Below, in pieces: positions 1 through 40,404 of a DNA stretch of 40,404 nucleotides. The stretch lies in UHGV virus genome UHGV-0391129. One strand, given 5' to 3'. A program made the translations under genes and the position numbers. The notes under the pieces are model-generated. The model searched no databases. It saw nothing but the letters and a program-made list of their open reading frames with translations, and had not been told where the DNA came from. Position 1 is the stretch's first letter. The number at the start of each line of letters is the position of its first letter. The DNA is from a virus.

Positions 1-609
1 GGCAGTAGAAACAGCCGTAGATAGTCTCTGTTCGAGTTTTGAGACATTCCCCCACAAACGATTAGAGAACGTCTTTCCACTCCAAGGATAGTTCATAATG
101 GCTTCTAATTCTGCTTTTGGCAAAGGTGAGACATCACCCCCAAGTAGATAAGTCAATGCATTTACATTTGAGTTGTAAGTTCGGTTTACGATATCTTCCA
201 GCCGTTTATTAAACTTGCCTGTTGCATCTTTTTTTACCATAGAAGCAGCGAGTTCACTAAAAATATCCGTCCGCAGTTGAAGAAGTCGATTTACTTTGGC
301 GTAATCATATGGCGGGAAATATTCATCAATGAATTCTTGGTACTTCTCATCGGAATTCATCAATTCCTTATAGTTCTGGTCAATATACTTTCGATATTTT
401 TTTTGGTCACGCTTGCTGAACTCTTCTAATAACTCCGCTTGCGTCATATCGTGTAAATCCGCTTGAGATAGCAATTTAGCTTGAATATTTTTTAATGCTT
501 CCGGAAGAATATCTTGTAAGAGTTTGATTGTATCGTTTTCCGCTTTTAGCCTGGCTAAATCTTCTAATTCACGACGCTTTTCCCAATACTTATTAGACCA
601 TTTACTCAT
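1..609 (-). CDS. Minor head (head morphogenesis) protein, SPP1 gp7 / Mu F-like, N-terminal part; the ORF runs off the window start
   Basis: ATG at 609..607 overlaps the portal stop. The frame stays open (203 codons, hand-translated MSKWSNKYWEKRRELEDL...RLSTAVSTA) down to nt 1. It sits immediately downstream of the portal gene, as gp7-like genes do, and continues in frame with the ORF leaving the 3' end of the window. Confidence 0.6.
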   Translation of the reverse strand, partial: MSKWSNKYWEKRRELEDLARLKAENDTIKLLQDILPEALKNIQAKLLSQADLHDMTQAELLEEFSKRDQKKYRKYIDQNYKELMNSDEKYQEFIDEYFPPYDYAKVNRLLQLRTDIFSELAASMVKKDATGKFNKRLEDIVNRTYNSNVNALTYLLGGDVSPLPKAELEAIMNYPWSGKTFSNRLWGNVSKLEQRLSTAVSTA

Positions 610-2056
610 TATCCTCACCGACTTTGGCTAGATATTCGCTATCTGGATAAGCTTGATTGGATTCTACGTCCATCATTTCATTTTCGTAGTCCACGTCAGT
701 CACGAAGGGGATCTGGCTTTGAATAGTCCGTTTAGATACATAAGGTGCTAGTTTAGGCAATGCCTCAGCAAGATAACCTAAATCTGTCGGTAGTGACCGA
801 GAGAATGTAAAGATGATTTTATTCGGGTCGATATCAACTTTATTGGCAAATTTCATAAATGCCGCCATTGTTTCAGCACATTCTTTCAAACCTTCTCTAA
901 AATATTGCTCTTTGGTATTCGTCTTTGCTTCTAAACTGATGATTTGCCACTTGCGAGCTTCGCCAGAGCTATTTGACTTAAACACTTCATCATTGAAGTC
1001 AATTGCCTTACAGATTGTGTAAAATTGCTTTTTCAACAGATTTAAATGGTACTCATTAAAATCTTTTTGCAAATCCTTTGTAACATACCCTGCCTTAGAG
1101 CCAGCATCTCTCAAATTGATAATACCGAGTTGTTCCATCATGCGTTTAGCCTTATCCTCATTTAAATCAGCACCAGTAATCAACATGTAAGCTAATTTAA
1201 ATTGTTCGATTTCGTTCTGTTGGTCAGACAGCACACGATCGAGTGCATCGCTAATTTCTTCAGCAACTTCAAAATCGCAATAACGGTTCGTATTATTTTT
1301 AAATTCCGATAAATTAATTGTTCCTAATGGATTCGTGACATCGTCTAAAAATTTAAACTTACCAAAATCTTGCGCTACGCCATCAATATATCGGGCATAA
1401 GTAACAATCTTTGATTCTGTCACCAACTTCAATTCTTCATAATATTTCTTTTGATAGCTGTCATATTTATCTTGAATATAGACGGCACCATTTTCATATT
1501 TTTCAGCTTTCCAGGGCTCTATATTAGATGCCCAAAGCTCCCAACCGTTTTTAGTTTTATTCGGCTCTAACAACCTAAACGCTGCACCGCAAGCGCCCTG
1601 AAAAGTTGCTGTATCAGGGTCTAACATTGCAAAACGCATTTGGCTAATTTGATTAACTAGCGTATCAAATTCTTTTGGTACAGACGGTGTAGAAATTTTA
1701 TTTCCAACTAGCGTATCTCTTAACTTTTGGACTAAAGTTCGTTTCTGTTCAGATACGTCATAATCCCATTTAATCGGAATACCTACAAAGTGATTCACTG
1801 CTTGATCTACAACAATGTTATACATTCCGCCATGGATTTTATTATTAACTTTTATAATTTTCGTATCTGGTTTTTGACGATCATCAATTTCATTTTTCTC
1901 ACTAGTGTAAGCAAGATACTTTCGTTCACGATCATCAAAAAATGGCTTCATATCCTCAATAAAGCTATTTGGATTAAACATCCCATCTGCAATTTGTGTA
2001 GCATATTTAACTCTTAACCGTTTATATTTTTTTAACGATATTTCCGAATTAATCAA
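602..2056 (-). CDS. Portal protein (SPP1 gp6-type)
   Basis: 484 aa ORF directly downstream of terL and upstream of the gp7-like minor head gene; size and position are typical for a siphovirus portal. Confidence 0.75.
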   Translation of the reverse strand: MINSEISLKKYKRLRVKYATQIADGMFNPNSFIEDMKPFFDDRERKYLAYTSEKNEIDDRQKPDTKIIKVNNKIHGGMYNIVVDQAVNHFVGIPIKWDYDVSEQKRTLVQKLRDTLVGNKISTPSVPKEFDTLVNQISQMRFAMLDPDTATFQGACGAAFRLLEPNKTKNGWELWASNIEPWKAEKYENGAVYIQDKYDSYQKKYYEELKLVTESKIVTYARYIDGVAQDFGKFKFLDDVTNPLGTINLSEFKNNTNRYCDFEVAEEISDALDRVLSDQQNEIEQFKLAYMLITGADLNEDKAKRMMEQLGIINLRDAGSKAGYVTKDLQKDFNEYHLNLLKKQFYTICKAIDFNDEVFKSNSSGEARKWQIISLEAKTNTKEQYFREGLKECAETMAAFMKFANKVDIDPNKIIFTFSRSLPTDLGYLAEALPKLAPYVSKRTIQSQIPFVTDVDYENEMMDVESNQAYPDSEYLAKVGEDNE

Positions 2057-2067
2057 AATTCCACCTC

Positions 2068-3483
2068 CTAATAAGCGATAAATTCAAATTCGTCTCCACT
2101 CGCTATCGTCTCAGCAATGCCGGTTGTAGCATCTGGCGCATCATCATGCTTGTTCTTACCCTCACGTTGGTAACTTGTCATGGCTTGATAATATTCCGGA
2201 CATCTTGTTCGCCAATCTGCCGGCATTCTCACATGCTGTTCAATCCAGGCACTATTCGAATATATCCGTGCTTGTTTATTTGATGATTGGTAAAAATCCT
2301 CAATGGCTGCTGTACACTTGCTAACTATCTTCTCTTTAACTGCGCGCGCAAAAGAGCGTCCGCCATTATTCCGTTCAATACGGCTATGGTTGACGCCCTG
2401 ATTAATTATTTGATTTGCTACCGCTATTTCTGTATATTCCATTGGTTCTTGCGTATAAATGACGTCCAAAACATCCACATCACCACTACCATCATCCAGT
2501 TCGCCGAAAGCAATAGAACAGAGATAATCGGCACCGGTATCTGCAGTATCACAGTATTGCCAGATTTTGCGGTATTGTGATTTACTATCGTAAGTTCTGA
2601 ACTCTTTATATAGTCGTCCTTTAATATCAATTGGAGTTTGTTGATAGTTAGCAGCGGCTATGTCAGCTCCCATTGTTTTGATTTTCCGTTGATATTCTTT
2701 CTTTGACAGTATTTCTTCACATAACATCTTATCCGTTTTTTCATCGTACGCCTGCATATTTACGTGTTTCACCCGATATCCAGAATTAGGTAATTCTCGT
2801 AAAGCACGTCCAGCCAAATCATCGCTGTGCCATCGTGTCATGATAATAATAATTTTGCCACCCGATTCAAGACGAGATAGCATTGTATTGATAAACCAAT
2901 CCCAATGTTTTTCTAGCACCATCGCATTATTTGCTTCTTCAGCATTTTTAATTAAGTCATCAATGATGATAATATCTGCACCAAAACCGGTAGCAGTACC
3001 CGTAGGAGACGTAGCTAAATAGTTGTTATAGCCATTAGTTAAACTCCATAAATTCATTGCTCCGTCCCCTTGTTTAATAGATACACCAGGGAAAATATCG
3101 CTAAAGACAATTTTATTTTTATCTGCTTTGATTTCTTGTATGGCATTCCTAACACCTTTTGAAAAGGTCGTCGATAACGTTTCATTATACGAACCTGTCA
3201 TAATCTTTTTAGATTGATCATTCCCTAAAACCCATTCTACAAATTTACCGCCAGTTCTGGACTTTCCGTGACGAGGAGGCTCGTTTATTACAAGTACGTC
3301 ATGCTCATCATCAGATAAAAAACTTTGTAGTTCGTTGCATAAATCGGATAGGAATGTCCTACTAGATTTATAAAATTTTCCTGCTGTTGTCTGGCAATAA
3401 TCCCAAAAGAAACGGCGTGACAACTCAGCTTTAGCACCCGTAGCAATATTACCCATCACGAGATGCCAACTTTCTAAGTTCAT
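2068..3483 (-). CDS. terL: Terminase large subunit
   Basis: 471 aa with a P-loop-like motif NEPPRHGKSRTGG and a C-terminal nuclease-like region containing an acidic IIIIDD patch; 4-nt overlap with the upstream terS-like gene. Confidence 0.8.
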   Translation of the reverse strand: MNLESWHLVMGNIATGAKAELSRRFFWDYCQTTAGKFYKSSRTFLSDLCNELQSFLSDDEHDVLVINEPPRHGKSRTGGKFVEWVLGNDQSKKIMTGSYNETLSTTFSKGVRNAIQEIKADKNKIVFSDIFPGVSIKQGDGAMNLWSLTNGYNNYLATSPTGTATGFGADIIIIDDLIKNAEEANNAMVLEKHWDWFINTMLSRLESGGKIIIIMTRWHSDDLAGRALRELPNSGYRVKHVNMQAYDEKTDKMLCEEILSKKEYQRKIKTMGADIAAANYQQTPIDIKGRLYKEFRTYDSKSQYRKIWQYCDTADTGADYLCSIAFGELDDGSGDVDVLDVIYTQEPMEYTEIAVANQIINQGVNHSRIERNNGGRSFARAVKEKIVSKCTAAIEDFYQSSNKQARIYSNSAWIEQHVRMPADWRTRCPEYYQAMTSYQREGKNKHDDAPDATTGIAETIASGDEFEFIAY

Positions 3484-4033
3484 CCTCGGTTAAGTTAGCA
3501 TAAGGATTGCTTACGCCAACCAGGCCGGATAGTTCCGTTTCCTTTTTGTCACGCCATATTTCAGGTTTGCGATTTTTAAGCCAAAACGCAGCAGCTCCTG
3601 TATCTGGCGCTACTTGTTTATCAACCTCAAGAAATACAATGCGTTCTCGTGTAGGAACCGCCTTTATCGCAGCATCTTTAACTTCTTGCAAAACAGCTTC
3701 TGGGTGATCTAGTTTATAACGATTTTCAAATTCACGACGTTCGCTTTCAACTACATCTCTGTCTCTGTCTACAACTTTCGCTGTTCGCTCAGTATATTCA
3801 TAACCAATCGCTCTTTTAAAAAGCGCATTTTCAACTTGACGGTCTACCACTTCTTTTCCCTTTTTTAAGGCCTGACAAATCTGACTATAATTCTCTTTCC
3901 ATCGATACAAGGTTTTAGGTGCAATGCCCATATTTCCAGATATTTGTTCATCAGTGAGACCGTCGCGGGCCCAACCTTCAATTTTTATCAATCCTTCATC
4001 AGTTAACCATTCTTGATATTTACCCTTAGCCAC
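3449..4033 (-). CDS. terS: Terminase small subunit (HTH DNA-binding)
   Basis: 194 aa with an N-terminal HTH (GNMGIAPKTLYRWKENY) directly upstream of terL. GTG start preceded by AGGTGAG. Confidence 0.65.
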   Translation of the reverse strand: MAKGKYQEWLTDEGLIKIEGWARDGLTDEQISGNMGIAPKTLYRWKENYSQICQALKKGKEVVDRQVENALFKRAIGYEYTERTAKVVDRDRDVVESERREFENRYKLDHPEAVLQEVKDAAIKAVPTRERIVFLEVDKQVAPDTGAAAFWLKNRKPEIWRDKKETELSGLVGVSNPYANLTEDELRKLASRDG

Positions 4034-10228: not shown

Positions 10229-10945
10229 ATGATTCAAAATAATTCACTAATCTGTCCTCATTGCGGACAAACATCTCCAAATATTTCTGCTGTTTATAGA
10301 GAAAAAGAAGTTTCCTTTTCGGAGACCTCACCTTCAATTTACGCAAAACATTTTGGTATGGAACCAAACCAATTTGATGAAATCAAAGATGCTATCATTG
10401 TTGGAATCTTGAGGTGTCCTGCTTGCGAAAAACACACAATAAAAATCTTTGGTCTTGGTCATGAAGTTGAAAATAATACTATGAATTTTTGGCCAAAAAG
10501 TAGAGCAAAAGTTTATCCAACCTATATTCCCGATAGTGTCAGAAAAGACTACGAAGAAGCATGTGCCATATTAGATTTAAGTCCAAAGGCATCAGCTACA
10601 TTATCTAGGCGTTGCCTTCAAGGTATGATTAGGGACTTCTGGGGAATTAGTGGTAAAAAATCCCTTTTCGATGAAATTAATTCGATTGATGACCAAGTTT
10701 CTCCGGATGTAAGAACTGTTTTACATTCTCTGAGACAGCTAGGAAACATTGGTGCTCATCCAGAAAAAGATATTAATTTAATCGTTGATATTGAACCTGG
10801 AGAAGCGAATCAGCTGGTTATGTTCATCGAGTATTTAATGGAAAATTGGTACATCAACAGACAAAAAACTGCTGATATGCTTGAAACAATCAATGAAATA
10901 AATAATGAAAAGCAGTCGGTTCGTAAAGAAGACAGTAATCTTTAA
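10229..10945 (+). CDS. Zinc-ribbon plus DUF4145 (HEPN-like) protein; candidate abortive-infection/superinfection-exclusion moron
   Basis: 238 aa. N-terminal CPHCGQ...(42 aa)...CPACEKH zinc ribbon and a C-terminal LRQLGNIGAHPE motif (R..N...H, HEPN-like, as in DUF4145). It is the only plus-strand gene embedded in the minus-strand replication module and has its own promoter. Confidence 0.55.
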   Translation: MIQNNSLICPHCGQTSPNISAVYREKEVSFSETSPSIYAKHFGMEPNQFDEIKDAIIVGILRCPACEKHTIKIFGLGHEVENNTMNFWPKSRAKVYPTYIPDSVRKDYEEACAILDLSPKASATLSRRCLQGMIRDFWGISGKKSLFDEINSIDDQVSPDVRTVLHSLRQLGNIGAHPEKDINLIVDIEPGEANQLVMFIEYLMENWYINRQKTADMLETINEINNEKQSVRKEDSNL

Positions 10946-16618: not shown

Positions 16619-16846
16619 TTACACCTCCTGTTTAACATTTGCGTATTTTCGGTCAATGCCGAGAAAGTCTGCAATTTCTAATCGATAGAAATTAGCTTTT
16701 TTACCTTTTTGAAATCCCTCAATAACTTGACGTGTGTATACAGCAGACTTTCCAATGTGACTGGCAACATCATTTAATTTGATACGCTTTCTTTTCATCA
16801 TGATGTCAGCAATTTCTCCAAAATCTGTGATCCGCATTATTTTCAT
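16619..16846 (-). CDS. Cro-like HTH regulator
   Basis: 75 aa with an HTH (LNDVASHIGKSAVYTRQVIEG). The AAGGAG RBS abuts the first ATG, so the true start may be the ATG at about 16837. First gene of the leftward early operon. Confidence 0.6.
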   Translation of the reverse strand: MKIMRITDFGEIADIMMKRKRIKLNDVASHIGKSAVYTRQVIEGFQKGKKANFYRLEIADFLGIDRKYANVKQEV

Positions 16847-16879
16847 CTCCTTCTTTCCATAAAATTGGGTTAATAATAG

Positions 16880-17164
16880 TTAGCCTTCATCTACTCGGTA
16901 GATGATTTTTGTTTATAAGCTAGTTAATTTATTAGCTAAAACTGTTGACATTTTTAACCTATAGTGTAAAATGTAGACATAGTTAAATAAGGCTATAGAA
17001 AGTCCCAGTAAACCTTTTATCCGTCGCCAAACGTTGAGGTTATCACTATGCTATTCTTATGTCTTTTTTTAGCTGACTAACTAGCTTATGAACATAGTAT
17101 ATTAATCTTTAGATTAAATGTCAACCTTTTTTAACCTAAAGATTAAAAAGATTGTTCTTTTGCT
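16880..17164. promoter_or_regulatory. Genetic-switch region holding candidate promoters, operator half-sites and a perfect palindrome
   Basis: Palindrome CATCTAC-tcg-GTAGATG plus T-run at 16889..16915. Plus-strand promoter TTGACA (16945..16950) and TAAAAT (16967..16972). Minus-strand promoter TTGACA (17124..17119), 17-nt spacer, TATACT (17101..17096). Operator half-sites TTAATCTTTAG at 17102..17112 and its inverse CTAAAGATTAA at 17136..17146. Confidence 0.45.
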
Positions 17165-17530
17165 ATGGAGGATGTTTATATGACACCATTTGAAAGAGTT
17201 AAATATCTTTCTGATAAACAAGGGATTTCGATTAATGCTTTGGAAGAAAGAATTGGTCTTAGCAAAAATACTTTATATTCTTGGAAGAAAAAAACACCAG
17301 GCGTGGACAAGCTTAAACTCGTAGCCGACTACTTCGATGTCTCCACTGACTACCTACTAGGGCGCACGAACAATCCTGTAGCAGGTCTTTCCAAAAAAGC
17401 TCCGTTCACTGTGGAAGAGGCACTCGCTTCTGTTATGAGTAGCGATGGTAAGCCATTGACTGAACACGATCGAAAAGTATTGACTGGTATTATTGAAGCT
17501 TATCTTGAAAAAAATACTGACGCTGAGTAG
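17165..17530 (+). CDS. cI-like repressor (XRE-family HTH)
   Basis: 121 aa with an N-terminal HTH (ISINALEERIGLSKNTLYSWKK). The GGAGG RBS lies inside the first codons, so the start is probably the ATG at 17180 (MTPFERV...). Confidence 0.7.
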   Translation: MEDVYMTPFERVKYLSDKQGISINALEERIGLSKNTLYSWKKKTPGVDKLKLVADYFDVSTDYLLGRTNNPVAGLSKKAPFTVEEALASVMSSDGKPLTEHDRKVLTGIIEAYLEKNTDAE

Positions 17531-17971
17531 GTGATTTTATTGGACATTGATAATGAAGTAAATGAGATTATTAATGAGCTTGGTGTGACAGTTATTGAAA
17601 CGCCCGAACTAGACTCTGATGCCAAATATATAGCCGTAATGGATACAATTGTCTTGGATTCTCGATTATCTGAACGAATTAAGCTATTACGGCTATTACA
17701 CGAACTTGGTCATGCTGCTAAACACAAAAATAACTACTTGCTTTATAAAAAGAGCTTCGCACTTCATTCAAAAATGGAAAATGAAGCGGAAGAATTTATG
17801 ATTGAAAAAATGTTAGAAGCAAAGTTAAATGATCCAGACTTTGAGCCCAGTTCATTTAATTACATAAATTTTTTAGAAAGTTATGATATCGAAACAAGAT
17901 ACGAACCTGTCGTTAAAGAGTTTATGATGAAATATCTTGTCGGTTTTAGTACCGATAATATATTTTTTTAG
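17531..17971 (+). CDS. ImmA/IrrE-family metallopeptidase (anti-repressor protease)
   Basis: 146 aa containing an HEXXH motif (LHELGHAAKH), immediately downstream of the repressor gene. GTG start. Confidence 0.65.
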   Translation: MILLDIDNEVNEIINELGVTVIETPELDSDAKYIAVMDTIVLDSRLSERIKLLRLLHELGHAAKHKNNYLLYKKSFALHSKMENEAEEFMIEKMLEAKLNDPDFEPSSFNYINFLESYDIETRYEPVVKEFMMKYLVGFSTDNIFF

Positions 17972-18347: not shown

Positions 18348-19469
18348 ATGGCAAGTATTAAACAGCAAAAGAACGGAAAGTGGCGTTATAGAGTGCGCTA
18401 TAAAGAAAACGGAAAGTTTAGAGAAATATCAAAAAGTGGATTTAGAACAAAACGTGATGCACAATCAGCAGCTAATGAGATTGAAACGAAAATTTCAGGC
18501 GGGATAAATATTTGCGACGGTAATATGCTGTTGCGAGATTACTTAGAAATATGGCTTAATCTGAAGAAAAGACAAGTTAAACAGTCTACCCTACTCAAGA
18601 TCAATCGTTCTTTTAGACTGTATGTATTACCGCGGTTTGGACTTACTAAAATGACAGATATAAAAAGACTTGACTGCATTCAATGGATTCATACCATGTG
18701 CGAAAATCTTAATATTGACTCGGTAAAATCTTACGCTGCTCCATTCAACAACGCATTAGAAGATGCTGTTAACGAATATAAAATTATTGAATCTAATCCA
18801 ATGAAAAACATTAAATATCCTCGATCCGAGAAAAGAAAAAAGAATATCAAATTTTTTGAGCTTGATGATCTTAAATTATTGCTAGATATTATGAAAAATC
18901 AAAAAGATACACTTTATAATTATCAATATTATGTTTTAACAACGTTTCTAGCGCGAACTGGATTGCGTCTAGGTGAGGCTTTAGCGCTTAATTGGGAAGA
19001 TATAAATAAAAATAATTTATCTGTAACAAAAACTTTATATAGAGAAAATGAACAAGATTTTATAACTTCGCCTAAAACTGATTCAAGCTATCGTGTTATT
19101 GCTTTAGACGGAAAAACTATCGAATTATTAAAATCATTAAAAATAGCAAAGATGAAATATAGCTTAAAAAACAACGATTTTATTTTGAATAAAGACCTGA
19201 TTTTTTACGATTACAAAGGTAACCCACTAAAGCAAACAAATTATCGAACATATTTCTATAAAATGTGTCGATTAGCAAAGGTTCCTGTTTTATCTCCACA
19301 TTCACTCAGACATTCACATGCTGTACATTTACTGGAAAGCGGAGCAAATATAAAATACGTTTCTGAGCGCTTAGGCCATGCTACTATAAATATGACAGCA
19401 AATGTCTATCTGCACGTTTCACAAAAAATAGAACGAGAATCTATTTCTATGTACGAAAACTATTTCTAA
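18348..19469 (+). CDS. int: Tyrosine integrase
   Basis: 373 aa. Catalytic residues lie in ARTGLRLGEALAL (R), HSLRHSHAVHLL (H-x-x-R) and TANVYLHV (Y); RBS GGAGGAA. Confidence 0.85.
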   Translation: MASIKQQKNGKWRYRVRYKENGKFREISKSGFRTKRDAQSAANEIETKISGGINICDGNMLLRDYLEIWLNLKKRQVKQSTLLKINRSFRLYVLPRFGLTKMTDIKRLDCIQWIHTMCENLNIDSVKSYAAPFNNALEDAVNEYKIIESNPMKNIKYPRSEKRKKNIKFFELDDLKLLLDIMKNQKDTLYNYQYYVLTTFLARTGLRLGEALALNWEDINKNNLSVTKTLYRENEQDFITSPKTDSSYRVIALDGKTIELLKSLKIAKMKYSLKNNDFILNKDLIFYDYKGNPLKQTNYRTYFYKMCRLAKVPVLSPHSLRHSHAVHLLESGANIKYVSERLGHATINMTANVYLHVSQKIERESISMYENYF

Positions 19470-19710
19470 TTTTTGTGGCAAGTTTGTGGCAAGCACACTA
19501 ACTTGAGTATATAAAACGTTGATATAAAGAGATTTATTCGTACATACGCCATTTGGTTGATGAACCGCAAAACGTATTATAGCATATAATCTGTGATGGT
19601 GAAATGGCGTTAAATCAACGTTTCAAAAAAATATTTTAATATTTAATTACCCTCGTTTTACCTAATTTTACATTTTTTTGTGGCAAGTTTGTGGCAAGTT
19701 TACACAAACT
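19470..19710. mobile_element. attP region: two 24-bp direct repeats (each a tandem pair of TTTGTGGCAAG) flanking a nested imperfect palindrome
   Basis: TTTTGTGGCAAGTTTGTGGCAAG occurs at 19471..19493 and 19677..19699. Inverted repeats AACGTTGAT/ATCAACGTT and ACGCCATTT/AAATGGCGT lie between them. The region is non-coding and directly 3' of int. Confidence 0.55.
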
Positions 19711-19798: not shown

Positions 19799-20125
19799 AT
19801 GAAAAAAGGGTTAAACATTTTAATTATCTTAGTTGGTATCTTTATTTTGGGGGCTTGCGGCAGCAATTCAAAAGCAGATTATACAACACAAGAAGCCGAA
19901 AAAGTATTAGTTGATGGAGATTCGATTGATGGAAAAACCGTATCAATTACTGTTGATAAACTAGCTCCTCAAAGTGCTTTTGGATATAATATTCAAACTG
20001 GAGAACATATGAATTTTGTTAGTAACGAAAACCCGAAAGTTGAAACTGGTGATAAATTAATAGTCAAAGTAAATAAAGTAGAAAGTGTCATGGGGTCATG
20101 GATAATCACATATGATAAACAATAA
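19799..20125 (+). CDS. Small lipoprotein (candidate lysogenic-conversion/superinfection-exclusion protein)
   Basis: 108 aa with a signal peptide and lipobox ILGACGS. RBS GAAGGTGGGG. Plus-strand moron between attP and the lysis cassette. Confidence 0.55.
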   Translation: MKKGLNILIILVGIFILGACGSNSKADYTTQEAEKVLVDGDSIDGKTVSITVDKLAPQSAFGYNIQTGEHMNFVSNENPKVETGDKLIVKVNKVESVMGSWIITYDKQ

Positions 20126-21035
20126 CTGGGGGTTGGTAAAATTGAAAAAGATGTTAGGCACAATTTTAGTATTTATCAGCTTTACTCTTGTTGGTTGTTC
20201 CTCAAGAGTTACCACAGAGGATTTAAAAGCTAACGATTGGTCCATTGAACAATCAGGTAATAAAGATGAAGAATTGAAACTAATTGCTTCATTTACTGAT
20301 CACGTCATGACCATGTCAATTGATACGAGCAGCATGAAGTCAACAGCTACAAATGAATTAGAAAAAATTGGCGAAGAATTTGGAGAAGCGTTGATAAAGC
20401 AAATGTCATTCAAATATGAATATGAGTTATCAGGAGATAAGTTAACGCTAACAGATACGGAAGAAAATGAATCGTCATATTATATTGTTTCTAAGGATGA
20501 AAAAAACATTGTATTTGAACCTGATTCTAAAAAGGACAATAAAGATAGCGTTGTAAAGCTTGTTTTAACTCCTTACAAAAAATCAACAACAACAACGACA
20601 ACGAGTACAGAAAGTACATCTTCCTCTACAAAAGAATCGACTTCCAGCACGTCGGAATCCTCATCTTCTGAAGAGCAAGAAATGAGTTCAAGCGTAGATT
20701 TAGGATTACAAACATCTGATCCAAACAGACCATCCGTTAAAGAGCAAATTGAAGCGCAAAAAGCTCAGGAACAAGAAGAAAATTATTATTCTGATTATCC
20801 AGAAGAAAGCCAGCAGCAAAATCAAACACAACAAAATGAGCAACAAGATCAAAACCAAAATCAACAAGACCAAAATGCTCAAACAGGAGAACAATATATT
20901 ACAGTTCAAAATGGCGAAGGCCCGAATCAAGTAGCTGCTCGCGCAGGAATTTCTGTTGATCAATTGTATCAACTAAATGGTATTGATCCAAATAACTTTC
21001 TTTTTAATCCCGGTATGCAATTAAGAATCAAATAG
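20112..21035 (+). CDS. LysM-domain lipoprotein with an S/T-rich linker and a Q/N-rich region
   Basis: 307 aa with lipobox FTLVGCSS and a C-terminal LysM (YITVQNGEGPNQVAARAGISVDQLYQLNGI). The low-complexity middle region is TTTTTSTESTSSS...QQNQTQQNEQQDQNQNQQ. Confidence 0.6.
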   Translation: MINNNWGLVKLKKMLGTILVFISFTLVGCSSRVTTEDLKANDWSIEQSGNKDEELKLIASFTDHVMTMSIDTSSMKSTATNELEKIGEEFGEALIKQMSFKYEYELSGDKLTLTDTEENESSYYIVSKDEKNIVFEPDSKKDNKDSVVKLVLTPYKKSTTTTTTSTESTSSSTKESTSSTSESSSSEEQEMSSSVDLGLQTSDPNRPSVKEQIEAQKAQEQEENYYSDYPEESQQQNQTQQNEQQDQNQNQQDQNAQTGEQYITVQNGEGPNQVAARAGISVDQLYQLNGIDPNNFLFNPGMQLRIK

Positions 21036-21949: not shown

Positions 21950-22873
21950 TTATTTTATTGAACCATACGCATCAATTTTGCCTAAAGATAGATATCCTTT
22001 AGTACCATTACCACGTGGCTGAACGCCCCACATGTATCCGCCTGCTAACACGATATCATCAAACTTAACTTTATCGCCTTTTTTTAAAAGTGCAATGACT
22101 GGTGCAGACGTTTTAGCCGCGGTACGCAGATTAACATTACTATTTAGCGTGATTTCTTTCATTTTAATTCCTCCGTTATTTTCTACTGGTGGTTTTTCAG
22201 GTGTCGGAATAGGATTTGGTTTACTACCGCTGTTTGGATTAGCATAGGCCTTCCATGCTTTTTCATCCCCATAGAAGACATTCGCATCCAAAGCGCCACT
22301 ATAACCGCTCAGATATGTTTGGCTAGAGTATTGGAAACAAGCTGTTACACTGAAACCATTAGACTTAGGCGGACTTGGTTGTTTGTATCCTGCGATATTT
22401 GTATTTATTCCATAGTTTGCAATCCACAAACCATAGCCGGCTTTTGCAATCTTACTGAAATCTTTTGCGTTAATCACCGCCGTATATGTGTAAAACCATG
22501 GTCGAATTCCTGTTTTTTGGTACACTCGATCAAGCCAAGCTAAAGCCCAATTCACATCGTACTTATTATCACTTTCCCAATCTAGCACTGGAATTGCATC
22601 ACCATTGAGATAACCCTTCGATTTTTTTAAAAAGAAATCAGCTTCTTCAATTGCAGAACCTTGATAACCAATCTCGTGGGCGTAATGGTATACGCCAAGA
22701 AGTTTTCCAGATTTTTTAGCCAGTTGAAAACGACTGTCACAATATGGATTAACATACCCTTTTCCGTTTCCACCTCCTCCGGTAGACTTAATGATGACAA
22801 AATCACAAGGTACTTTTGAAACATCAATGTTACCTTGCCAGCTAGAAATATCAATACCGTTTAGCATAGTCAC
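21950..22873 (-). CDS. Endolysin: GH25 muramidase plus C-terminal SH3b cell-wall-binding domain
   Basis: The GIDISSWQGNIDVSKVPCDFVIIKSTGG...YHYA signature is GH25. The C-terminal ~65 aa are SH3_5-like. The probable start is the ATG at 22867 (MLNGID), preceded by GGAGG. Confidence 0.8.
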   Translation of the reverse strand: MTMLNGIDISSWQGNIDVSKVPCDFVIIKSTGGGGNGKGYVNPYCDSRFQLAKKSGKLLGVYHYAHEIGYQGSAIEEADFFLKKSKGYLNGDAIPVLDWESDNKYDVNWALAWLDRVYQKTGIRPWFYTYTAVINAKDFSKIAKAGYGLWIANYGINTNIAGYKQPSPPKSNGFSVTACFQYSSQTYLSGYSGALDANVFYGDEKAWKAYANPNSGSKPNPIPTPEKPPVENNGGIKMKEITLNSNVNLRTAAKTSAPVIALLKKGDKVKFDDIVLAGGYMWGVQPRGNGTKGYLSLGKIDAYGSIK

Positions 22874-23172
22874 TTGCCTCCTAACAAATCTTGTTTAGCC
22901 GTTTCAATTAATTTGTCAATTTCTTCATAACTAAAGGGGATTTTATTTTTAGAGAAGGTATCAATTAACTGTGATTTAATTAATTCACGATCAAATCTAT
23001 TCGCTGAACTAATAAAAATCTCTGCGTAACTACGCTTGATAGTTAGCTCATTTTTCAATCGCTCAATTTTGAACGCTTTTAAACATTGAAAAATAGCAAA
23101 CAATAAAGCAATCAGTAAAATCCCAAACATCGATAAAATAATAATATTTGCTACATTATTAAAAATCTGCAT
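22870..23172 (-). CDS. Single-TM membrane protein of the lysis cassette (holin-associated)
   Basis: Start called at MQIFNN (ATG 23172), which has RBS GGAAGGTGA upstream. N-terminal TM IIILSMFGILLIALLFAIF followed by a charged coiled coil. Confidence 0.45.
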   Translation of the reverse strand: MQIFNNVANIIILSMFGILLIALLFAIFQCLKAFKIERLKNELTIKRSYAEIFISSANRFDRELIKSQLIDTFSKNKIPFSYEEIDKLIETAKQDLLGGK

Positions 23173-23173
23173 G

Positions 23174-23587
23174 CTATTCACCTTCCTTGTCATCAGGATT
23201 GTTCGGAGCTTGTAGTCGTTTAATAATCGGGTCAAACATACTTGCAGCTATTCCCATTTTATTAAGATTTTCTACAATGCTGACCAGTTCATTTAGCGTT
23301 TCTAAAATATAAACACCGATAATAACGCTGACTGAAATCATTTCAGGCAATACAATAGTTAAAGGGACTACAGCTACTAATACAGCTAAAAGTGCAAATT
23401 TTTTAAGTAACCCAGTTCCCATTTTCCCTGATTTTAGGTCATGATTCACATAGGCTTGAATAAAACCTGTAATCATGTCTACCGCCATTAACATTAAAAT
23501 TACTGCTAACCAAATCAAAACTTTACCATAGTCGTCTTTCATCATCTGCTCTGCCCATAAAATCATTTTCATATCCATACTACTCAC
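23174..23587 (-). CDS. Holin
   Basis: 137 aa with three hydrophobic segments and a charged C-terminus (PNNPDDKEGE), immediately upstream of the endolysin gene. Confidence 0.55.
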   Translation of the reverse strand: MSSMDMKMILWAEQMMKDDYGKVLIWLAVILMLMAVDMITGFIQAYVNHDLKSGKMGTGLLKKFALLAVLVAVVPLTIVLPEMISVSVIIGVYILETLNELVSIVENLNKMGIAASMFDPIIKRLQAPNNPDDKEGE

Positions 23588-23618: not shown

Positions 23619-23654
23619 CAAAAAAAGACAATCTACTATTAAGAAGATTGTCTA
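23619..23654 (-). terminator. Rho-independent terminator downstream of the tail/fibre operon
   Basis: Minus strand reads AGACAATCT-tcttaatagt-AGATTGTCT followed by TTTTTTT. It starts at the stop codon of the GDPD-domain tail protein gene. Confidence 0.55.
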
Positions 23655-24896: not shown

Positions 24897-24897
24897 A

Positions 24898-27512: not shown

Positions 27513-30293
27513 TTATTTCTTAATTGGTCGTGCAAGACAAAAGTCACCGCCATTCAGGAGATAACCAAATGACAAATCAATTCTCCCATAACCAACACCA
27601 TTGCTATTCATACCGCCCATTTCGATAATCTTAGTTTGGTGACCATGATAGTCTTCTGTAAGAATTGCAGTATGTCCATTATTCCCTGCCCCGCTGCCTT
27701 GATTGACAATAACAATATCACCTGCTTTTGCTTCACTTGACGAAATCTCACGCAACCAACGTTTCGAACCTCTAGCGTCTGCCGTCATTGACCCGGTATA
27801 CCATTGCATATTTCCGGGCACGTTATAGCCTGCCTTATTTAGAACGAGCCAAACAAAACCGGAACAATCCGTACCACCAGATTTGTTGGGATTCAAAAAA
27901 TCACCCAAATCAGAAGATGGGTGAAGTTGAATATAGTAGAAATAACCAAGCCAGCTTTTAGCAACATCTAATATGGCTCCACCGCCTTTACTAATCGTCA
28001 AATCTTTAAAACGATTAAACCATTCTGTTGCCCAAGATTGGCGTTCTGGATGTGCTGCCGCTGGTCGTTCAAAGTTTTCTTCGAACACATAAGCAGCTTG
28101 TGCTGGATCTGTAATTTTTTTAAACTCAGCTACAGAAGTAGGTTGAACGCGGCCAAGCCATTGTCCGTTATAGCAACACCAATCAATTAGAGCTGATTGT
28201 GCTTTAGTTCCCGTATAATCATCTGTTATCCCTGCTTTGGCCATTAAGCGTTGAACATATTCGCGTCCATCCCACGTAGGCGCACCGATTAACGGATAGG
28301 ATGATCCATCCCACTGAACACCACCGAAACCAGGGCCACCTACTTGCGATGTGTTTGGATTCATTCCGGGACCAACTTCACCTCGAATATTACCAAGGAT
28401 TCCTGCAGTGGCTGCTTTACTGAAACCACGGGCAATTAAATATACCCACCATTGCCATGCAAATTTATCAGCAGAACTCGTGATACCAGCCGGATACGTT
28501 CCATCCCATTCTCCAGAGCCACCTTCTCCGCCGCCCCCACCTTGACCAGGAAAGACCTCTCGACTATTAATAGTCAACTTACCTTGGATATCTAAATCGC
28601 CAAAATGGTATGTTTTGCCATTTCCAAGCATTATAAAGCCTTTTTCTTGCACGGCTGAAATCAAAATATACTTACCAGAACCGTTAGCGCGAATAACCAG
28701 AGCATTTTCTTCTATAGGTGTTGGAGTTACAGCTTTTGGAAATGGATTACCTGCTGAGTCTGTTGTACCGATCGTACCAATCTCACCAGATTTACTCAAA
28801 AATTGCATGCCTTTTTTGGTTAACTCCATTACTTTTTTCTTATTATTTATAATTTGTAAAGCACCCGAAACGATTCTAAGCTGGTCGCCTAATTTGTTAA
28901 ATGATGTTTCCAAAACATCCGCTATTATCGTCCCAGTTCTAATAAAGTCCGCATTAAAGATGCTATCAATCGTCCATGCTGAATTAAAGGGGCCATTCCA
29001 ACCATTTTTGGAAAATGCAATGCCATTCTTGTTTAAACGGATCACATGTTTTGCTGTATTGATATCAGCGGTATCCATAATCAAAATATTAGAAGGTTGT
29101 GTTTTTGGCCACAACACAACATGTCCTCCTGCTTGCCCTCCACCAGTAATCATGGACGATACATAGTCTGTAAAACCACTCATATAACTGTTAGTAGCAT
29201 ACTCTTTTAATTTCTCTTGAAATTGATTCGTTTGTTGTTGATAAAACGCAACTTGCGTATCGCCAGCTACTAACGTTTTGGTCTTTTCATTTAATGTATC
29301 ATAAACAATACCTGTAACTTTTGATTCTAAATAGATATCATATTTTTTGTGATAAACGTGGAAAGTATCAAAAAGTCCATAGTTTCTGATTCGTGCAAAT
29401 TCCTTTGCTTCTTCACTATCTATCAACTTATCAAATTCAATTGTGATTGAAATCTTTGGCTTATCACAACCAGGGTTAATAGATTTAAAATAATTTGCAG
29501 CTACTTTATTCAATGAATTTAAGTCTTTTGCTCCTTGCTCTTCTGTGAATTGAATATGTTCCGTGCGTACATCCGAATAATTTTCAACTAATGGACTATC
29601 TACAACGTTCCCATAAATACGATTTGCCGTTCCTTCTGCTCCTTGTGCATCAACATAGGGGATAATACGAGTTTTCATCCCTGACCAATCAAGTTTTATT
29701 TTTAATCCCATTAAATCTTTGCCATAGCGAATTGTACCAACGTTATCACGTCCACGCCGTTTCAGGAGTGATAATTTAAATGGCTCCCTTTTCATCTCCC
29801 CACCCCAATACTGCAGCAAAGAACCTTGTTCACCGGCTATACAATTTAAAACATTTCGCGCCTCAAATGTAGTGCTAGAAGTCGTTGAAATATCCGAATA
29901 CAACCGAATATCTGATGCCTTATCCATGCCGTTCTCAATGAGTTTCATAGCGTTTTGAGCTGTTTGTGAATCAACTTCCACTTTTGTTACAGCACGTCTA
30001 CCAAGACGATATGTGCGTGACTTGGCATAGACTGTGACAGTATCCATAAATGTATCGACATCTTTATCATCTATATAAAAAATGTGATATTCTTCTTGGT
30101 CATTTGGTTTTGCTTTGATTTGATAATCATCTTCAAAATATTCATCAAATCGTGTTCCAAGCGGATATTCTAACTCTAATTCATATTTCCCGTTTGCCTC
30201 TTCTATGATTTCAACGTAAGAGCAATCTCTTAAAATTCCAAGTCCGTTGGTAGAAAAATCTGTTTCACTTGGCTCATAAATTCTTGGTTTCAT
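27513..30293 (-). CDS. Tail-associated lysin (Tal): prophage-tail-endopeptidase N-terminus, lysozyme-like middle domain and C-terminal NlpC/P60
   Basis: 926 aa. N-terminus MKPRIYEPSETDFSTNGLGILRD is Sipho-tail-endopeptidase-like. The middle region has GILGNIRGE...GGVQWDGS (tail lysozyme-like). The C-terminus has DCSGFVW (Cys) and GHTAILTEDYHGH (His), as in NlpC/P60. Confidence 0.75.
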   Translation of the reverse strand: MKPRIYEPSETDFSTNGLGILRDCSYVEIIEEANGKYELELEYPLGTRFDEYFEDDYQIKAKPNDQEEYHIFYIDDKDVDTFMDTVTVYAKSRTYRLGRRAVTKVEVDSQTAQNAMKLIENGMDKASDIRLYSDISTTSSTTFEARNVLNCIAGEQGSLLQYWGGEMKREPFKLSLLKRRGRDNVGTIRYGKDLMGLKIKLDWSGMKTRIIPYVDAQGAEGTANRIYGNVVDSPLVENYSDVRTEHIQFTEEQGAKDLNSLNKVAANYFKSINPGCDKPKISITIEFDKLIDSEEAKEFARIRNYGLFDTFHVYHKKYDIYLESKVTGIVYDTLNEKTKTLVAGDTQVAFYQQQTNQFQEKLKEYATNSYMSGFTDYVSSMITGGGQAGGHVVLWPKTQPSNILIMDTADINTAKHVIRLNKNGIAFSKNGWNGPFNSAWTIDSIFNADFIRTGTIIADVLETSFNKLGDQLRIVSGALQIINNKKKVMELTKKGMQFLSKSGEIGTIGTTDSAGNPFPKAVTPTPIEENALVIRANGSGKYILISAVQEKGFIMLGNGKTYHFGDLDIQGKLTINSREVFPGQGGGGGEGGSGEWDGTYPAGITSSADKFAWQWWVYLIARGFSKAATAGILGNIRGEVGPGMNPNTSQVGGPGFGGVQWDGSSYPLIGAPTWDGREYVQRLMAKAGITDDYTGTKAQSALIDWCCYNGQWLGRVQPTSVAEFKKITDPAQAAYVFEENFERPAAAHPERQSWATEWFNRFKDLTISKGGGAILDVAKSWLGYFYYIQLHPSSDLGDFLNPNKSGGTDCSGFVWLVLNKAGYNVPGNMQWYTGSMTADARGSKRWLREISSSEAKAGDIVIVNQGSGAGNNGHTAILTEDYHGHQTKIIEMGGMNSNGVGYGRIDLSFGYLLNGGDFCLARPIKK

Positions 30294-36455: not shown

Positions 36456-36465
36456 GCGATCACTC

Positions 36466-36693: not shown

Positions 36694-36710
36694 ACTAATT
36701 CCTCCTAAAT

Positions 36711-36740: not shown

Positions 36741-36741
36741 A

Positions 36742-37641
36742 TTATCCTTCTGTCGCTGTTTTCAAATTAAGAATTGAACCAGAGTTAGATGCATTATATT
36801 CGATAGAATATTCCCCAACGATACCAATACGACGTGAATCTGTTGTTTTTGCTAACTCTACTGCTCGCCATTCACGTAAAGGACGCAAGCGTAAATAGTT
36901 TGTATCTAATGCAGCAATCGTTCCAACCGGCAGAGCTGGTTCGATTAAGGCAATACCCGTTCCATAGTTAGAAACGATTTTACCTAATTGCAAGCCAAAC
37001 GTCATGGCATCGCCAAATTGGACAATTTTAGTGGATTTACCATCTAATTCGTCAGTCATCAAATCTTGCATATCTGGTGATACTAAACAAAGTTTTTCTC
37101 CCATGTAGCCTTTGTCGAACATCACACGAAACATATTATCAATATCTTTTCGTGTCACAGCTCCTGCAGCAGCCGTTTCAACTTTGTTGCTGGCATTAAT
37201 CAAGTTCAAAATACCATTCATTTTACGACCAACAGATCCCGCTTCATTAGTTTTTACTCCCGTAATTAATTTACGGTTCAAGTCAATTTTCATTTCCATT
37301 CCACGTAAGGCAACTTGATTATTTAATTCGCTACCGATCCCGTTGACGTTAATTGCATCTAGAGTTCCTGAAACAGAAGTTGATTTGCGGAAAATCTCTT
37401 GGTAGTTACTAATCCAATTACGACCGGATTCAGCATCTTTGTATTCTCCACCTTCTAATTGTTCAGATGAATCATCGGAATTGATTTCGTATTCTCGCCA
37501 TTTAATTTCTGTTGAACCTGCCGGCGCTGTTTTGCCTGCGCCTAATAAGTAGCTTAAAAACGGTGTGTTTGGTACCTGCATCGCATTAATTGCTGGTGAA
37601 ATATCTAAATACTCTAAATTGTTAACTGATGTTTTCTTCAT
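36742..37641 (-). CDS. Major capsid protein
   Basis: 299 aa ORF directly downstream of the scaffold gene and followed by a terminator. Confidence 0.7.
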   Translation of the reverse strand: MKKTSVNNLEYLDISPAINAMQVPNTPFLSYLLGAGKTAPAGSTEIKWREYEINSDDSSEQLEGGEYKDAESGRNWISNYQEIFRKSTSVSGTLDAINVNGIGSELNNQVALRGMEMKIDLNRKLITGVKTNEAGSVGRKMNGILNLINASNKVETAAAGAVTRKDIDNMFRVMFDKGYMGEKLCLVSPDMQDLMTDELDGKSTKIVQFGDAMTFGLQLGKIVSNYGTGIALIEPALPVGTIAALDTNYLRLRPLREWRAVELAKTTDSRRIGIVGEYSIEYNASNSGSILNLKTATEG

Positions 37642-37655
37642 TTTGACTCCTCCAT

Positions 37656-38276
37656 TTAGTTAAGTGGTTTTAAAATCTGGCTTAATAATTCTTCCGGATT
37701 TTTTGGTTGTTCATTCTGATTGTTTTGCTGTTGGCTGTTTTGTTGCTGCTTTGAACCATAAGCATTGTTCATTTGTAGTTCTTTTAATGATTCAGTATGT
37801 TTCTCATTAATTGCACTCAAAACTTTAGTAAAACCATCTACAGCTTTTTTAGTGAATTCTGTATCTGTACTAACCAAATTATTCAACATGAATTGTGAAA
37901 CCGATTCTTTTAGCTCGCCTTCAAGTTCTAGTCCGGAAATTTGTTCAGCTACAAAAGCTTTGTTATCACTTGTCATGCGTAAAGCTTTTTCTGCTTCAAA
38001 TTCCGCTTGAAGCTTTTCTAATTGCTGTTGTTCAGGTGACTTGTTTTTCTTAGAATCTTCGTACTGTTTGATAGTATCTTGCTTAATTTTTTCAAGATTA
38101 TTCTGCTTCCAAGCCTCTAACTGTTTGTCAGCCACAGACTGTGATTGAGATTGAAGAAATTTCTGTGCGTCTTCGTTGGATTCCGCAAAACTCTTAAATT
38201 CATCAAAAGAAAATTGAGGCGTTTGTTCCCCGTCATTTCCATCTTCAGCAAAAAATTGTAAATTCATTTTTAACAT
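37656..38276 (-). CDS. Scaffolding protein with an N-terminal ribosomal-L27-like Prp cleavage motif (MLKMNLQFFAE)
   Basis: Start called at MLKMNLQFFAED (ATG 38276) because of an AAAGGAGA RBS. The protein is coiled-coil, E/Q/K-rich, and has a QQQNSQQQNNQNEQ tail. The NLQFFA motif is the Prp protease recognition sequence known from Firmicute L27 and from staphylococcal phage 80alpha scaffold and capsid proteins. Confidence 0.65.
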   Translation of the reverse strand: MLKMNLQFFAEDGNDGEQTPQFSFDEFKSFAESNEDAQKFLQSQSQSVADKQLEAWKQNNLEKIKQDTIKQYEDSKKNKSPEQQQLEKLQAEFEAEKALRMTSDNKAFVAEQISGLELEGELKESVSQFMLNNLVSTDTEFTKKAVDGFTKVLSAINEKHTESLKELQMNNAYGSKQQQNSQQQNNQNEQPKNPEELLSQILKPLN

Positions 38277-38415
38277 CCATATTTCTCCTTTCGCCCCGCG
38301 ATTCGCAAAAAACGCCCCGCATTGCCTTGAGTTATAATTGCACCCCACCATTCAATTAAGCCCAGCATTGTGCTAGTTTCACGTCATTGCGGACAAAATA
38401 AAAGTCTAGAATTCG

Positions 38416-38679: not shown

Positions 38680-38681
38680 TA

Positions 38682-39202: not shown

Positions 39203-39242
39203 TACAAAAATAGCACTCAACCTCAGTTAAGAGAGAGTGCTA
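39203..39242 (-). terminator. Rho-independent terminator downstream of the minor head gene
   Basis: Minus strand reads AATAGCACTCTCTCTTAACTGAGGTTGAGTGCTATTTTTGT, a stem-loop followed by a T-run. Confidence 0.45.
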
Positions 39243-39407
39243 TTTAGTCTTATTTACTTTTGCATCTACTTTCCAACGGTCTTGAATTGTTGCCGTTCGG
39301 TAACCATGTTCAGCATAAAAATCACTTTTTATTTTCTTCCAATCTTCAAAACTTTTTGCTTCCTTTTGAAGTTTAATCAATTTGCGTTTTTCAGTAGTAG
39401 TCATCAT
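39240..39407 (-). CDS. Small basic protein (questionable)
   Basis: Out-of-frame overlap with the end of the minor head gene; start MMTTTEKRK; weak RBS. Confidence 0.25.
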   Translation of the reverse strand: MMTTTEKRKLIKLQKEAKSFEDWKKIKSDFYAEHGYRTATIQDRWKVDAKVNKTK

Positions 39408-40404
39408 CAAACTCGAACGTAGGGAGTTCTTTTTTATCGCTTCCATTAATTGTTACCTCCAATCCGTCTGAAGTTTCTTTCACAGTATAAGTAGCTCCAC
39501 GGTTTATAATTAATTCCTTTTCATCAGGAGAATCACTATTATAACCGATGTACCCAGCATTAGTTCCTTTAGAAACATTAATTCTAATTGTCATACCATC
39601 CATTGAATCTGCAAATCTCTCAGCAATAACTTTGTCAACACTTGTAGATTTAAAATCATTAAACTTATTCCCACTTAAAATCTTTTCGTATTCATTTTTA
39701 GAAATGCCACGATAAACTACAAGATCATCCTTAAGTTTAAATTTATTAATTGCTGATTCAAAATTAGCGACATTATATAGCACATAATCATCATCAACAC
39801 TTGAATAATTCGGGTCATTTAACAGCCCGTTCATATCGTTATACCACTCGTCAGTGTAATTGGCTACCGCGGCACGTTCTTTAGACAATAATGTTTTTAT
39901 CCATTCATCGCTTTGTTTTTGAAGTTTACTTTCTAAATCATCATCAACTTCATTATACACTATTTTAGAACTTTGGTTTGCCTTGAGATGGTTAAGTTTC
40001 ACACCCCAGTTGCCACTGGCAAACTCGTCTAACGTATCACCAAATAGCGCTTCGTACTCTTTATCAATCGCTTCGGTATCAAGTTCTGGCATTTTAGGCA
40101 TTAGCGTACATCGGCACCTACCGTGGTAAGGAGGTTCATCTCCTTCCTCAACAACTTGCTTATGCTTTTTTCCACATATACTACAAACTCGCTCATCTTC
40201 TGCGGTGAAAACTTGTCCAGCAGGAACCCCAGTTGCTTTAAAAGATGCTCTAATCCCCTCAACAGCAAAATGTGAATATTCAGTTCGAACTAAATTTTCA
40301 ATGGCATTATTAAACTTGGTGCTTTCAAGTTTAAACATGTCTGCTATTTCAGAACTGCCTCGCATTGTTTTAAGAGCTTCTATCAAACCACCACCACTTG
40401 CGAT
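39391..40404 (-). CDS. Minor head protein (SPP1 gp7/Mu F-like morphogenesis domain) C-terminal part fused to an ADP-ribosyltransferase domain; the 5' end lies beyond the window
   Basis: The frame is open up to nt 40404 (...IASGGG|LIEALK...). Morphogenesis-domain motifs TEYSHF and YHGRCRC are present. The C-terminal ART triad is VVYRGIS (Arg), FKSTSVD (STS) and DEKELIINRG (ExE). Confidence 0.7.
   Translation of the reverse strand: MASGGGLIEALKTMRGSSEIADMFKLESTKFNNAIENLVRTEYSHFAVEGIRASFKATGVPAGQVFTAEDERVCSICGKKHKQVVEEGDEPPYHGRCRCTLMPKMPELDTEAIDKEYEALFGDTLDEFASGNWGVKLNHLKANQSSKIVYNEVDDDLESKLQKQSDEWIKTLLSKERAAVANYTDEWYNDMNGLLNDPNYSSVDDDYVLYNVANFESAINKFKLKDDLVVYRGISKNEYEKILSGNKFNDFKSTSVDKVIAERFADSMDGMTIRINVSKGTNAGYIGYNSDSPDEKELIINRGATYTVKETSDGLEVTINGSDKKELPTFEFDDDYY

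Follow-up and report, generated by a model that had tools for sequence, protein, structure and literature searches.

The UHGV virus genome UHGV-0391129 is available as a single stretch of 40,404 nucleotides (nt), referred to below as the window, both ends of which fall inside an open reading frame (ORF) of the minus strand. The question raised by this locus is whether these two ends belong together, as proposed in an initial annotation that described the window as a closed, circularly permuted phage genome in which a head gene is split by the boundary and rejoins in frame. The data presented here show that the two ends are adjacent in nature, and that the window is one exact turn of a circle whose end point is arbitrary. 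With high confidence, it can be considered to represent a temperate siphophage of Enterococcus dispar, as one complete genome copy of 40,404 bp in the non-integrated topology defined by an uninterrupted phage attachment site (attP), and linearised arbitrarily inside the gene that follows the portal gene. As judged from sequence, this split gene would encode a MuF polymorphic toxin of known architecture, in which a MuF/SPP1-gp7-like N-terminus is combined with an ADP-ribosyltransferase (ART) of the R-S-ExE type.

Closure of the genome across the window boundary

Direct reading of the sequence shows that the minus-strand frame opened by the ATG at 609-607 comprises 203 codons, the last of which ends exactly at nt 1 (...RLSTAVSTA), and that a codon boundary also falls at nt 40404 (IASGGGLIEALKTMRGS...), from which 337 codons lead to the TGA at 39393-39391. 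Joining position 1 to position 40404 gives a product of 540 amino acids (aa). Once the window is circularised, a single frame out of six remains open through the join, with 546 codons compared to 12-121 in the remaining frames, and the two ends of the 40,404-nt window share no direct repeat of 8 nt or longer. The joined sequence corresponds, with 100% identity and 100% coverage, to the database protein P0001, for which at least 24 public contigs contain an uninterrupted gene and whose cluster includes a member named 'ADP-ribosyltransferase [Enterococcus dispar]'. Besides, two loci (L001 and L002) extracted from the contigs k141_157311 (ENA ERZ27252297; 263,311 bp) and Ga0334897_000024 (JGI 3300037528; 297,227 bp) each match the circularised window with 100% identity along 21,623 bp, without any gap across the 40404|1 junction. 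Since the exact 540-aa protein exists in the database and since these contigs are contiguous across the junction, the in-frame join is not a product of chance. The initial annotation was thus right about the split gene, and the coordinates and sequences that it gave at both ends are exact.

In the same line, alignments with 12 and with 40 homologous sequences reveal neither a gap nor a duplication at residues 203|204, either of which had initially been named as an observation that would refute closure. Residues that are invariant among homologues from Enterococcus, Vagococcus, and other bacteria flank the join on both sides (L196 and S197 on one side, G207 and G209 on the other), and a continuous helix is predicted by AlphaFold, from the 40-sequence alignment, for residues 180-215, thereby spanning the join with a predicted local distance difference test (pLDDT) score of 77-86. 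An exact-pattern scan of IMG/VR returned no match for the 40404|1 junction or for attP, and a similar scan of the JGI metagenomes returned none for attP.

Circular contigs from metagenomes can be spurious, and the window has no overlap of its own by which its closure could be checked, so that a false circle or a chimera that lacks or repeats sequence at its ends has to be weighed. Against such an artefact stand the independent contigs that are 100% contiguous across the join and the presence of the exact protein on at least 24 contigs. In addition, the phage is found integrated in k141_157311, where the core of its left attachment site (attL) starts at 182,566 (L009 position 5443) and that of its right attachment site (attR) at 222,970 (L003 position 11207), the difference being 40,404. 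L001, L003, and L009 agree with one another in their coordinates, without any net indel. As the integrated copy measures exactly 40,404 bp from core to core, the join involves neither loss nor duplication of sequence. Closure at the same length is seen again in a second assembly of attP topology, vOTU_03008 (ENA ERZ2947210), whose 40,525 bp correspond to 40,404 + 121; it begins at window position 22768 and ends at 22888, its last 121 nt being 95.9% identical to its first 121 nt. Given this length, it represents the same circle, linearised in the lysin gene. Finally, scaffold_467 (ERZ28598866) measures 40,459 bp, i.e., 40,404 + 55, with a break placed by arithmetic at window 20935-20989. An assembly artefact, ruled out by the contiguity across the join and by the exact core-to-core length, is accordingly given a vanishingly small probability, and the view of the window as a closed genome is borne out by contiguity in independent contigs, by the core-to-core distance, and by the second closing assembly. 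The description as 'circularly permuted' needs to be narrowed: it holds for the arbitrary linearisation of a circle, as reflected by the contigs that run through the join and by the other break points, and its wording covers the assembly, not the virion DNA. Such arbitrary linearisation of a circular phage genome is ordinary and well understood.

As a separate observation, contig ends from four assemblies cluster at window 22768-22926, those of vOTU_03008 lying at 22768 and 22888, and others at 22924 (L011), 22926 (L012), and 22897 (L015); the two overlap copies of vOTU_03008 differ at 5 of their 121 positions. This clustering suggests strain microdiversity or a shared boundary of the lysin module at which assembly graphs break.

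Attachment sites and bacterial host

The attP region, located directly after the integrase gene (Table 1), contains, besides two full 24-nt arm repeats, each made up of two 11-mers, a partial third copy at 19686-19709, and inverted repeats flank its core. Arm repeats and inverted repeats around a core are the usual arm-type architecture for a tyrosine integrase. In integrated contigs (L003, L004, L006, and L007), identity to the window on the integrase side stops at 19568 and host genes follow, among which DAGK/YegS-like and RecD2-like genes. At the other junction, seen in L009, host genes coding for a phosphotransferase system (PTS) component, nusG, secE, rpmG, and queT reach window position 19554, where the phage begins. 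The bacterial attachment site (attB) rebuilt from both host flanks has one exact match in a species-representative genome collection, which is found in E. dispar ATCC 51266 (NZ_KE136354.1), where the site is unoccupied. Since all four forms of the attachment site are documented and the empty attB lies in E. dispar ATCC 51266, E. dispar is the host of this phage.

These sites also make it possible to assess whether the window could be an excerpt of an integrated prophage, cut from a chromosome and bounded by attL and attR. The same phage does sit integrated in the 263-kb and 297-kb chromosomal contigs mentioned above. However, the core 19554-19568 is bordered by phage DNA on both sides, forming the attP junction; the window has no host flank, and it ends inside one gene rather than at attachment sites. 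The comparison of the att sites rules this explanation out, and virtually no credence is left to it; the claim of a non-integrated form, based on attP and on missing host flanks, is thereby upheld. The absence of host genes, also claimed initially, agrees with the fact that no housekeeping annotation was found by Pfam and PHROGs among the genes of the window. As to the position of attP, said to lie intact between the integrase and the lysis genes, the site is indeed intact, with attL, attR, and the empty attB recovered, but two lipoprotein genes (19799-21035) separate it from the lysis genes. These two genes are present in every contig of the attP form and match phage protein families, which identifies them as phage cargo and not as host DNA.

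The attP junction is moreover spanned in four other samples (L005/L010, L008, L011, and L012). Tandem prophages or replicative concatemers could nevertheless be its source, as any head-to-tail arrangement gives the same junction and the same circular graph, the 'closed genome' then being a property of the assembly graph only. This is considered quite improbable: the chromosomal contigs pass through a single prophage copy without collapse, and several contigs of the attP form come from other samples, one of them being labelled as a viral operational taxonomic unit. Such an origin would in any case leave the genome sequence and its completeness unchanged. What counts against the reading of the window as a non-integrated genome is that sequence alone cannot separate virion DNA, an excised circle, a concatemer, and a tandem lysogen.

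For the phage cycle, the integrase would recombine attP, through its core and its TTTGTGGCAAG arm repeats, with attB upstream of queT, and, upon induction, the genome would be excised, replicated, and packaged by the TP901-1-like terminase described below. The status of the window can be regarded as settled: it is a complete temperate phage genome, closed correctly and free of host contamination, for which the host, attP, and attB are all defined, and the other findings made in it can be read within the frame of a complete phage genome. In the host flank, about 5.5 kb from attR, the 23S-methyl RNA motif RF01065 is detected with 86.6 bits on the minus strand of L003 (16696-16800), 5' of a methyltransferase gene.

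Packaging

The terminase large subunit (TerL) shows 73-74% identity, across 98% of its length, with the TerL of the Lactococcus phages TP901-1, Tuc2009, ul36, and P335, which are pac (headful) phages; no sequence match to TerL was found in the PDB. This likeness suggests, at the level of sequence comparison, headful packaging. The head module, with a separate scaffold, no prohead protease seen, an SPP1-type portal, and MuF, is a pac-type arrangement. The neighbourhood of terS, the gene of the terminase small subunit (TerS), is the usual place of the pac site, and the DNA would most likely be packaged by the headful mechanism from a pac site near terS, a mode from which assemblies would be expected to close into circles with arbitrary break points. 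Two points weigh against this picture of packaging: neither a pac site nor terminal redundancy was identified in the window, and a literature search gave no quotable statement on the packaging mode of TP901-1.

In this context, the ends of the window could also be thought of as true physical ends of the virion DNA, of the cos type or with short terminal repeats, the join then reflecting circularisation after injection. Nothing specific speaks in favour of this explanation. Both ends lie midway along a conserved helix encoded by a structural gene and lack a terminal repeat, other assemblies break elsewhere, at window 22768 and at about 20935-20989, and the large terminase subunit belongs to the TP901-1 type. 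The probability left to physical ends is practically nil, and an arbitrary cut in a circle is retained.

A contig encoding the protein P0132 (40,504/40,473 bp) was considered as another closure of the same circle and was ruled out, being a mosaic relative with a different packaging region. In this relative (L018; Logan SRR13060995_3719, 40,473 bp), the portal and the MuF-ART are near-identical (97%) and the head and tail genes are similar to those of the window, but two HNH endonuclease genes and a gene for a 376-aa protein are found in place of those of TerS and TerL. The difference looks like a module swap at the terminase.

The split gene and its predicted MuF-ADP-ribosyltransferase product

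The position of the split gene directly downstream of the portal gene, put forward in the initial annotation, is confirmed by an overlap of 8 nt between the 3' end of the portal gene (602-2056) and the ATG of the muf gene (609). The portal protein itself is 22% identical to SPP1 gp6 (E=1e-10). The C-terminal ADP-ribosyltransferase also proposed at that time was recovered with the Pfam family ADPrib_exo_Tox (PF03496), which matches residues 366-517 with E=2e-19 and 70.2 bits, compared to a cut-off of 23.4. All catalytic motifs are present, namely R435 (in VYRG), S456-T457-S458, and E498-K-E500. Among proteins of solved structure, this domain best matches Lmo0066 (E=2.7e-13), Plx2A, VIP2, Certhrax, and BECa, i.e., R-S-E ADP-ribosyltransferases of the C2/C3/VIP2 type, with which it shares a PF03496 score above the cut-off and aligned Arg and ExE motifs. 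In the alignment with Lmo0066 (8za7_B), the Arg and ExE motifs face the corresponding residues and the S-T-S is without a matching motif. In contrast to these enzymes, the domain is here fused to a phage head protein and not to a secretion or binding component.

The N-terminal part is less sharply defined, and the claim that it resembles SPP1 gp7 stands in a weakened form. In its favour, the NCBIfam model TIGR01641 (phageSPP1_gp7) matches residues 211-307 with E=8.9e-9, and PF04233 (Phage_Mu_F) matches all 12 of the aligned homologues, with a best E of 4.1e-8. Residues 1-340 are conserved among homologues and the C-termini vary, being of the ADPrib_exo_Tox type, of the ART-PolyVal type, unannotated, or absent. 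Several observations nevertheless weigh against the assignment as a MuF toxin. The TIGR01641 score of 35.7 bits lies below the cut-off of 39.65; the PF04233 match to the protein itself, although full-length (residues 196-305; E=0.0074), reaches 17.4 bits for a cut-off of 29.6; and the direct similarity to SPP1 gp7, obtained by hhalign with a profile of the homologue alignment, is marginal (E=0.021). In the AlphaFold model from the 40-sequence alignment, the ART region (residues 343-540) has a pLDDT below 50, so that only the N-terminal region is usable, and a Foldseek search of this model against the PDB was uninformative, returning generic helical bundles only. Finally, packaging, injection, toxicity, and immunity are ascribed to the 540-aa protein by analogy with the MuF literature.

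According to this literature, genes coding for MuF toxins directly follow portal genes and occur only in temperate phages, 14% of these toxins are ADP-ribosyltransferases, and a studied example is the EFV toxin from a prophage of Enterococcus faecalis V583 (Jamet et al. 2017, PMC5576092). The protein of the E. dispar phage shares with this class the post-portal position of its gene, the conserved MuF/gp7-like N-terminus, the variable C-terminal toxin, a small ORF that follows, and the temperate nature of the phage; it differs by a MuF domain that stays below the Pfam and NCBIfam cut-offs and by its host, E. dispar. Its homologues annotated as 'head protein' in E. faecalis are 51-53% identical over 84% of the 540-aa query, but carry an ART-PolyVal domain (PF18760) instead of ADPrib_exo_Tox. 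With SPP1 gp7, the protein has in common the position after an SPP1-type portal gene and the TIGR01641 match, whereas gp7 has 308 aa and no toxin domain.

Binding to the portal takes SPP1 gp7 into the procapsid, a route that toxin fusions have been proposed to use (PMC6316719). By analogy, a few copies of the protein would enter the procapsid through portal binding by its gp7-like first 340 residues, and the C-terminal R-S-ExE ADP-ribosyltransferase might then reach the next host together with the DNA. A candidate for an immunity protein against the ART domain is the small lysine-rich ORF of 68 aa, which shares 56 nt with the 3' end of the toxin gene and for which neither Pfam nor PADLOC gave a match. 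This phage therefore provides one more MuF-ADP-ribosyltransferase head protein, in a class whose delivery mechanism is still only hypothesised, and the phage-host pair lends itself to testing the delivery hypothesis because lysogens, a type strain with an empty site, and an excised form are all documented. On a side note, two Enterococcus-type MuF proteins, P0035 and P0053, appear in public databases under the names Bacillus anthracis and Klebsiella pneumoniae; these labels probably reflect contaminated assemblies.

Integration upstream of queT

Read on the queT strand, the core (GCGGTTCATCAACCA) forms the 5' half of an element found 20-60 nt before the start codon of queT. Rfam model RF00522 (PreQ1) aligns with this element from end to end, with 19.7 bits on the empty E. 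dispar attB (E=0.039 in a 141-nt search), 12.0 bits on the lysogen (attL; E=4.5), 30.1 bits on an E. aquimarinus-like leader (E=0.0066), and 34.9 bits on the E. viikkiensis leader (E=0.0004), all four scores being below the gathering score of 39. Across the queT leaders of seven Enterococcaceae, the element hardly varies, and it lies directly upstream of queT (PF06177) in all seven species. Its P1 stem of 5 bp has 95% of its cells paired, with compensatory changes in two pairs, and the observed value is reached by 16 of 500 shuffles, on 8 sequences only. The regions concerned are window 19554-19603, L013 5284-5419, L009 5395-5484, and L019-L024 around 514-603.

Integration rebuilds the element, the outermost P1 pair changing from C-G to U-G. 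In the native E. dispar leader, the only promoter-like site (L013 5284-5312) is moved by integration to the other end of the prophage. The phage has its own promoter-like site close to the core (Table 1), which faces outward across the core, towards queT once integrated, and whose -10 region lines up, in the E. aquimarinus-like and E. viikkiensis leaders, with that of the native queT promoter. It is therefore tentatively proposed, with somewhat less than even confidence, that the phage integrates in the 5' half of a preQ1-type aptamer, rebuilds the aptamer, and replaces the displaced queT promoter by its own extended -10 promoter, lysogeny thereby rewiring the expression of queT, which codes for a transporter of a queuosine precursor, under preserved riboswitch control. 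The use of a conserved aptamer half as a core would resemble the use of tRNA genes by other phages. A literature search found nothing relevant on prophage integration at queT or in a preQ1 riboswitch, and this reading of the aptamer and the promoter is a lead rather than a result. Conservation of this 15-nt core in several species of Enterococcus could, if the proposal is true, widen the range of hosts that can be lysogenised. Integration in a probable preQ1 riboswitch, with an adjoining phage promoter, is the only mildly unusual element of this genome.

Relationship to known phages and gene content

In terms of relatedness, the TP901-1, Tuc2009, and ul36 phages of the Lactococcus P335 group share with the window the 73-74% identical TerL and the layout of temperate siphophages, but there is no similarity at the nucleotide level, and the host genus, the integrase type, and the att site differ; TP901-1 uses a serine integrase. 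SPP1 differs in being virulent and in having an unrelated TerL, a BLASTP comparison of the window TerL with SPP1 G2P giving no match. The closest phage records are those of the Enterococcus phages SEsuP-1, VEsP-1, and EFC-1, whose MuF proteins are 51-62% identical, and the helicase gene of EFC-1 is 75% identical at the nucleotide level. By megablast against phage records, 6% of the first 25 kb of the window is matched (75% identity) and 0% of the last 15 kb, so that no close relative was found among these records by this method. The phage is a distinct, previously uncatalogued temperate E. dispar siphophage with a MuF-ADP-ribosyltransferase.

Its gene content was established from the Pfam annotation of the genes called over the whole circle and from PHROGs, Pfam, NCBIfam, and PADLOC scans (Table 1), and the gene set is that of a standard temperate siphophage. 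The lysogeny-switch module consists of a Cro-like protein, an HTH_3 repressor, an ImmA-like peptidase, and the integrase, and the replication module of an SMC/AAA_23-like ATPase, an AAA_24 protein, a DEAD helicase, a PriCT_2/AAA_25 primase-helicase, and RusA; a late regulator gene is present as well. There are also a packaging/portal module (TerS, TerL, SPP1-type portal, and MuF-ART), a head module (DUF4355 scaffold, SU10-type major capsid protein, and head-tail connectors), without any prohead protease gene seen among the annotated genes, and a tail module comprising a terminator, a major tail protein, a chaperone, a tape measure protein, Dit, a 926-aa tail lysin, a BppU-like protein, and a protein with a glycerophosphodiester phosphodiesterase (GDPD) domain. 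No tRNA was found in the window, nor any RNA family in an Rfam scan of it at gathering threshold.

Table 1. Features of the window, with coordinates in the numbering of the 40,404-nt stretch
Feature	Position	Strand	Remarks
muf-ART gene, 5' part (codons 1-203)	1..609	-	ATG 609-607; MuF core domain from about residue 196 (nt 24)
muf-ART gene, 3' part (codons 204-540 and TGA 39393-39391)	39391..40404	-	Remainder of MuF to residue 307 (nt 40093)
ADP-ribosyltransferase domain	nt 39918-39463 (residues 366-517)	-	R435, S456-T-S458, E498-K-E500
Small ORF, 68 aa (54 aa from ATG 39404)	39240..39446	-	Called as a gene in L001/L002
Portal protein, SPP1-type	602..2056	-	PF05133; phrog_64 E=9.5e-80; TIGR01538 E=7e-32
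Terminase large subunit	2068..3483	-	74% identical to TP901-1 TerL
Terminase small subunit	3449..4033	-	phrog_309 E=8.7e-65
Lysogeny switch	16619..17971		Cro-like 16619-16846 (-); HTH_3 repressor 17165-17530 (+); ImmA-like M78 peptidase 17531-17971 (+)
Tyrosine integrase	18348..19469	+	PF14657, PF14659, PF00589; NCBIfam tyrosine recombinase matches
attP	19470..19709		24-nt arm repeats TTTTTGTGGCAAGTTTGTGGCAAG at 19470-19493 and 19675-19698
Common core, 15 bp	19554..19568		TGGTTGATGAACCGC; identical in attP, attL, attR, and attB
Promoter-like site	19576..19603	-	TTCACC-16-TGcTATAAT; 10/12 matches, TG extension; 7 nt from core
Two lipoprotein genes between attP and lysis module	19799..21035	+	108 aa (lipobox LGAC); 307 aa (LVGC), C-terminal LysM
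Lysis module	21950..23578	-	GH25/SH3_5 endolysin 21950-22867; 100-aa ORF 22870-23172; holin 23174-23578
Major capsid protein and scaffold	36742..38351	-	SU10_MCP 36742-37641; DUF4355 37656-38351 (Pfam)

Among the tail genes, the GDPD domain belongs to a 414-aa protein (23652-24896, minus strand), and the 926-aa protein (27513-30293, minus strand) combines Prophage_tail, lysozyme, and NlpC/P60/CHAP domains; the two proteins probably act on teichoic acid and peptidoglycan during entry. The larger of the two lipoproteins has a Ser/Thr/Gln-rich linker, and both genes occupy a position typical of lysogenic conversion, where they could play a role in superinfection exclusion. Finally, a lone plus-strand gene at 10229-10945, within the minus-strand replication module, matches DUF4145, the PADLOC model PD-T7-4 (E=6.5e-15), and phrog_1305, and may be an anti-phage defence gene carried by the prophage.

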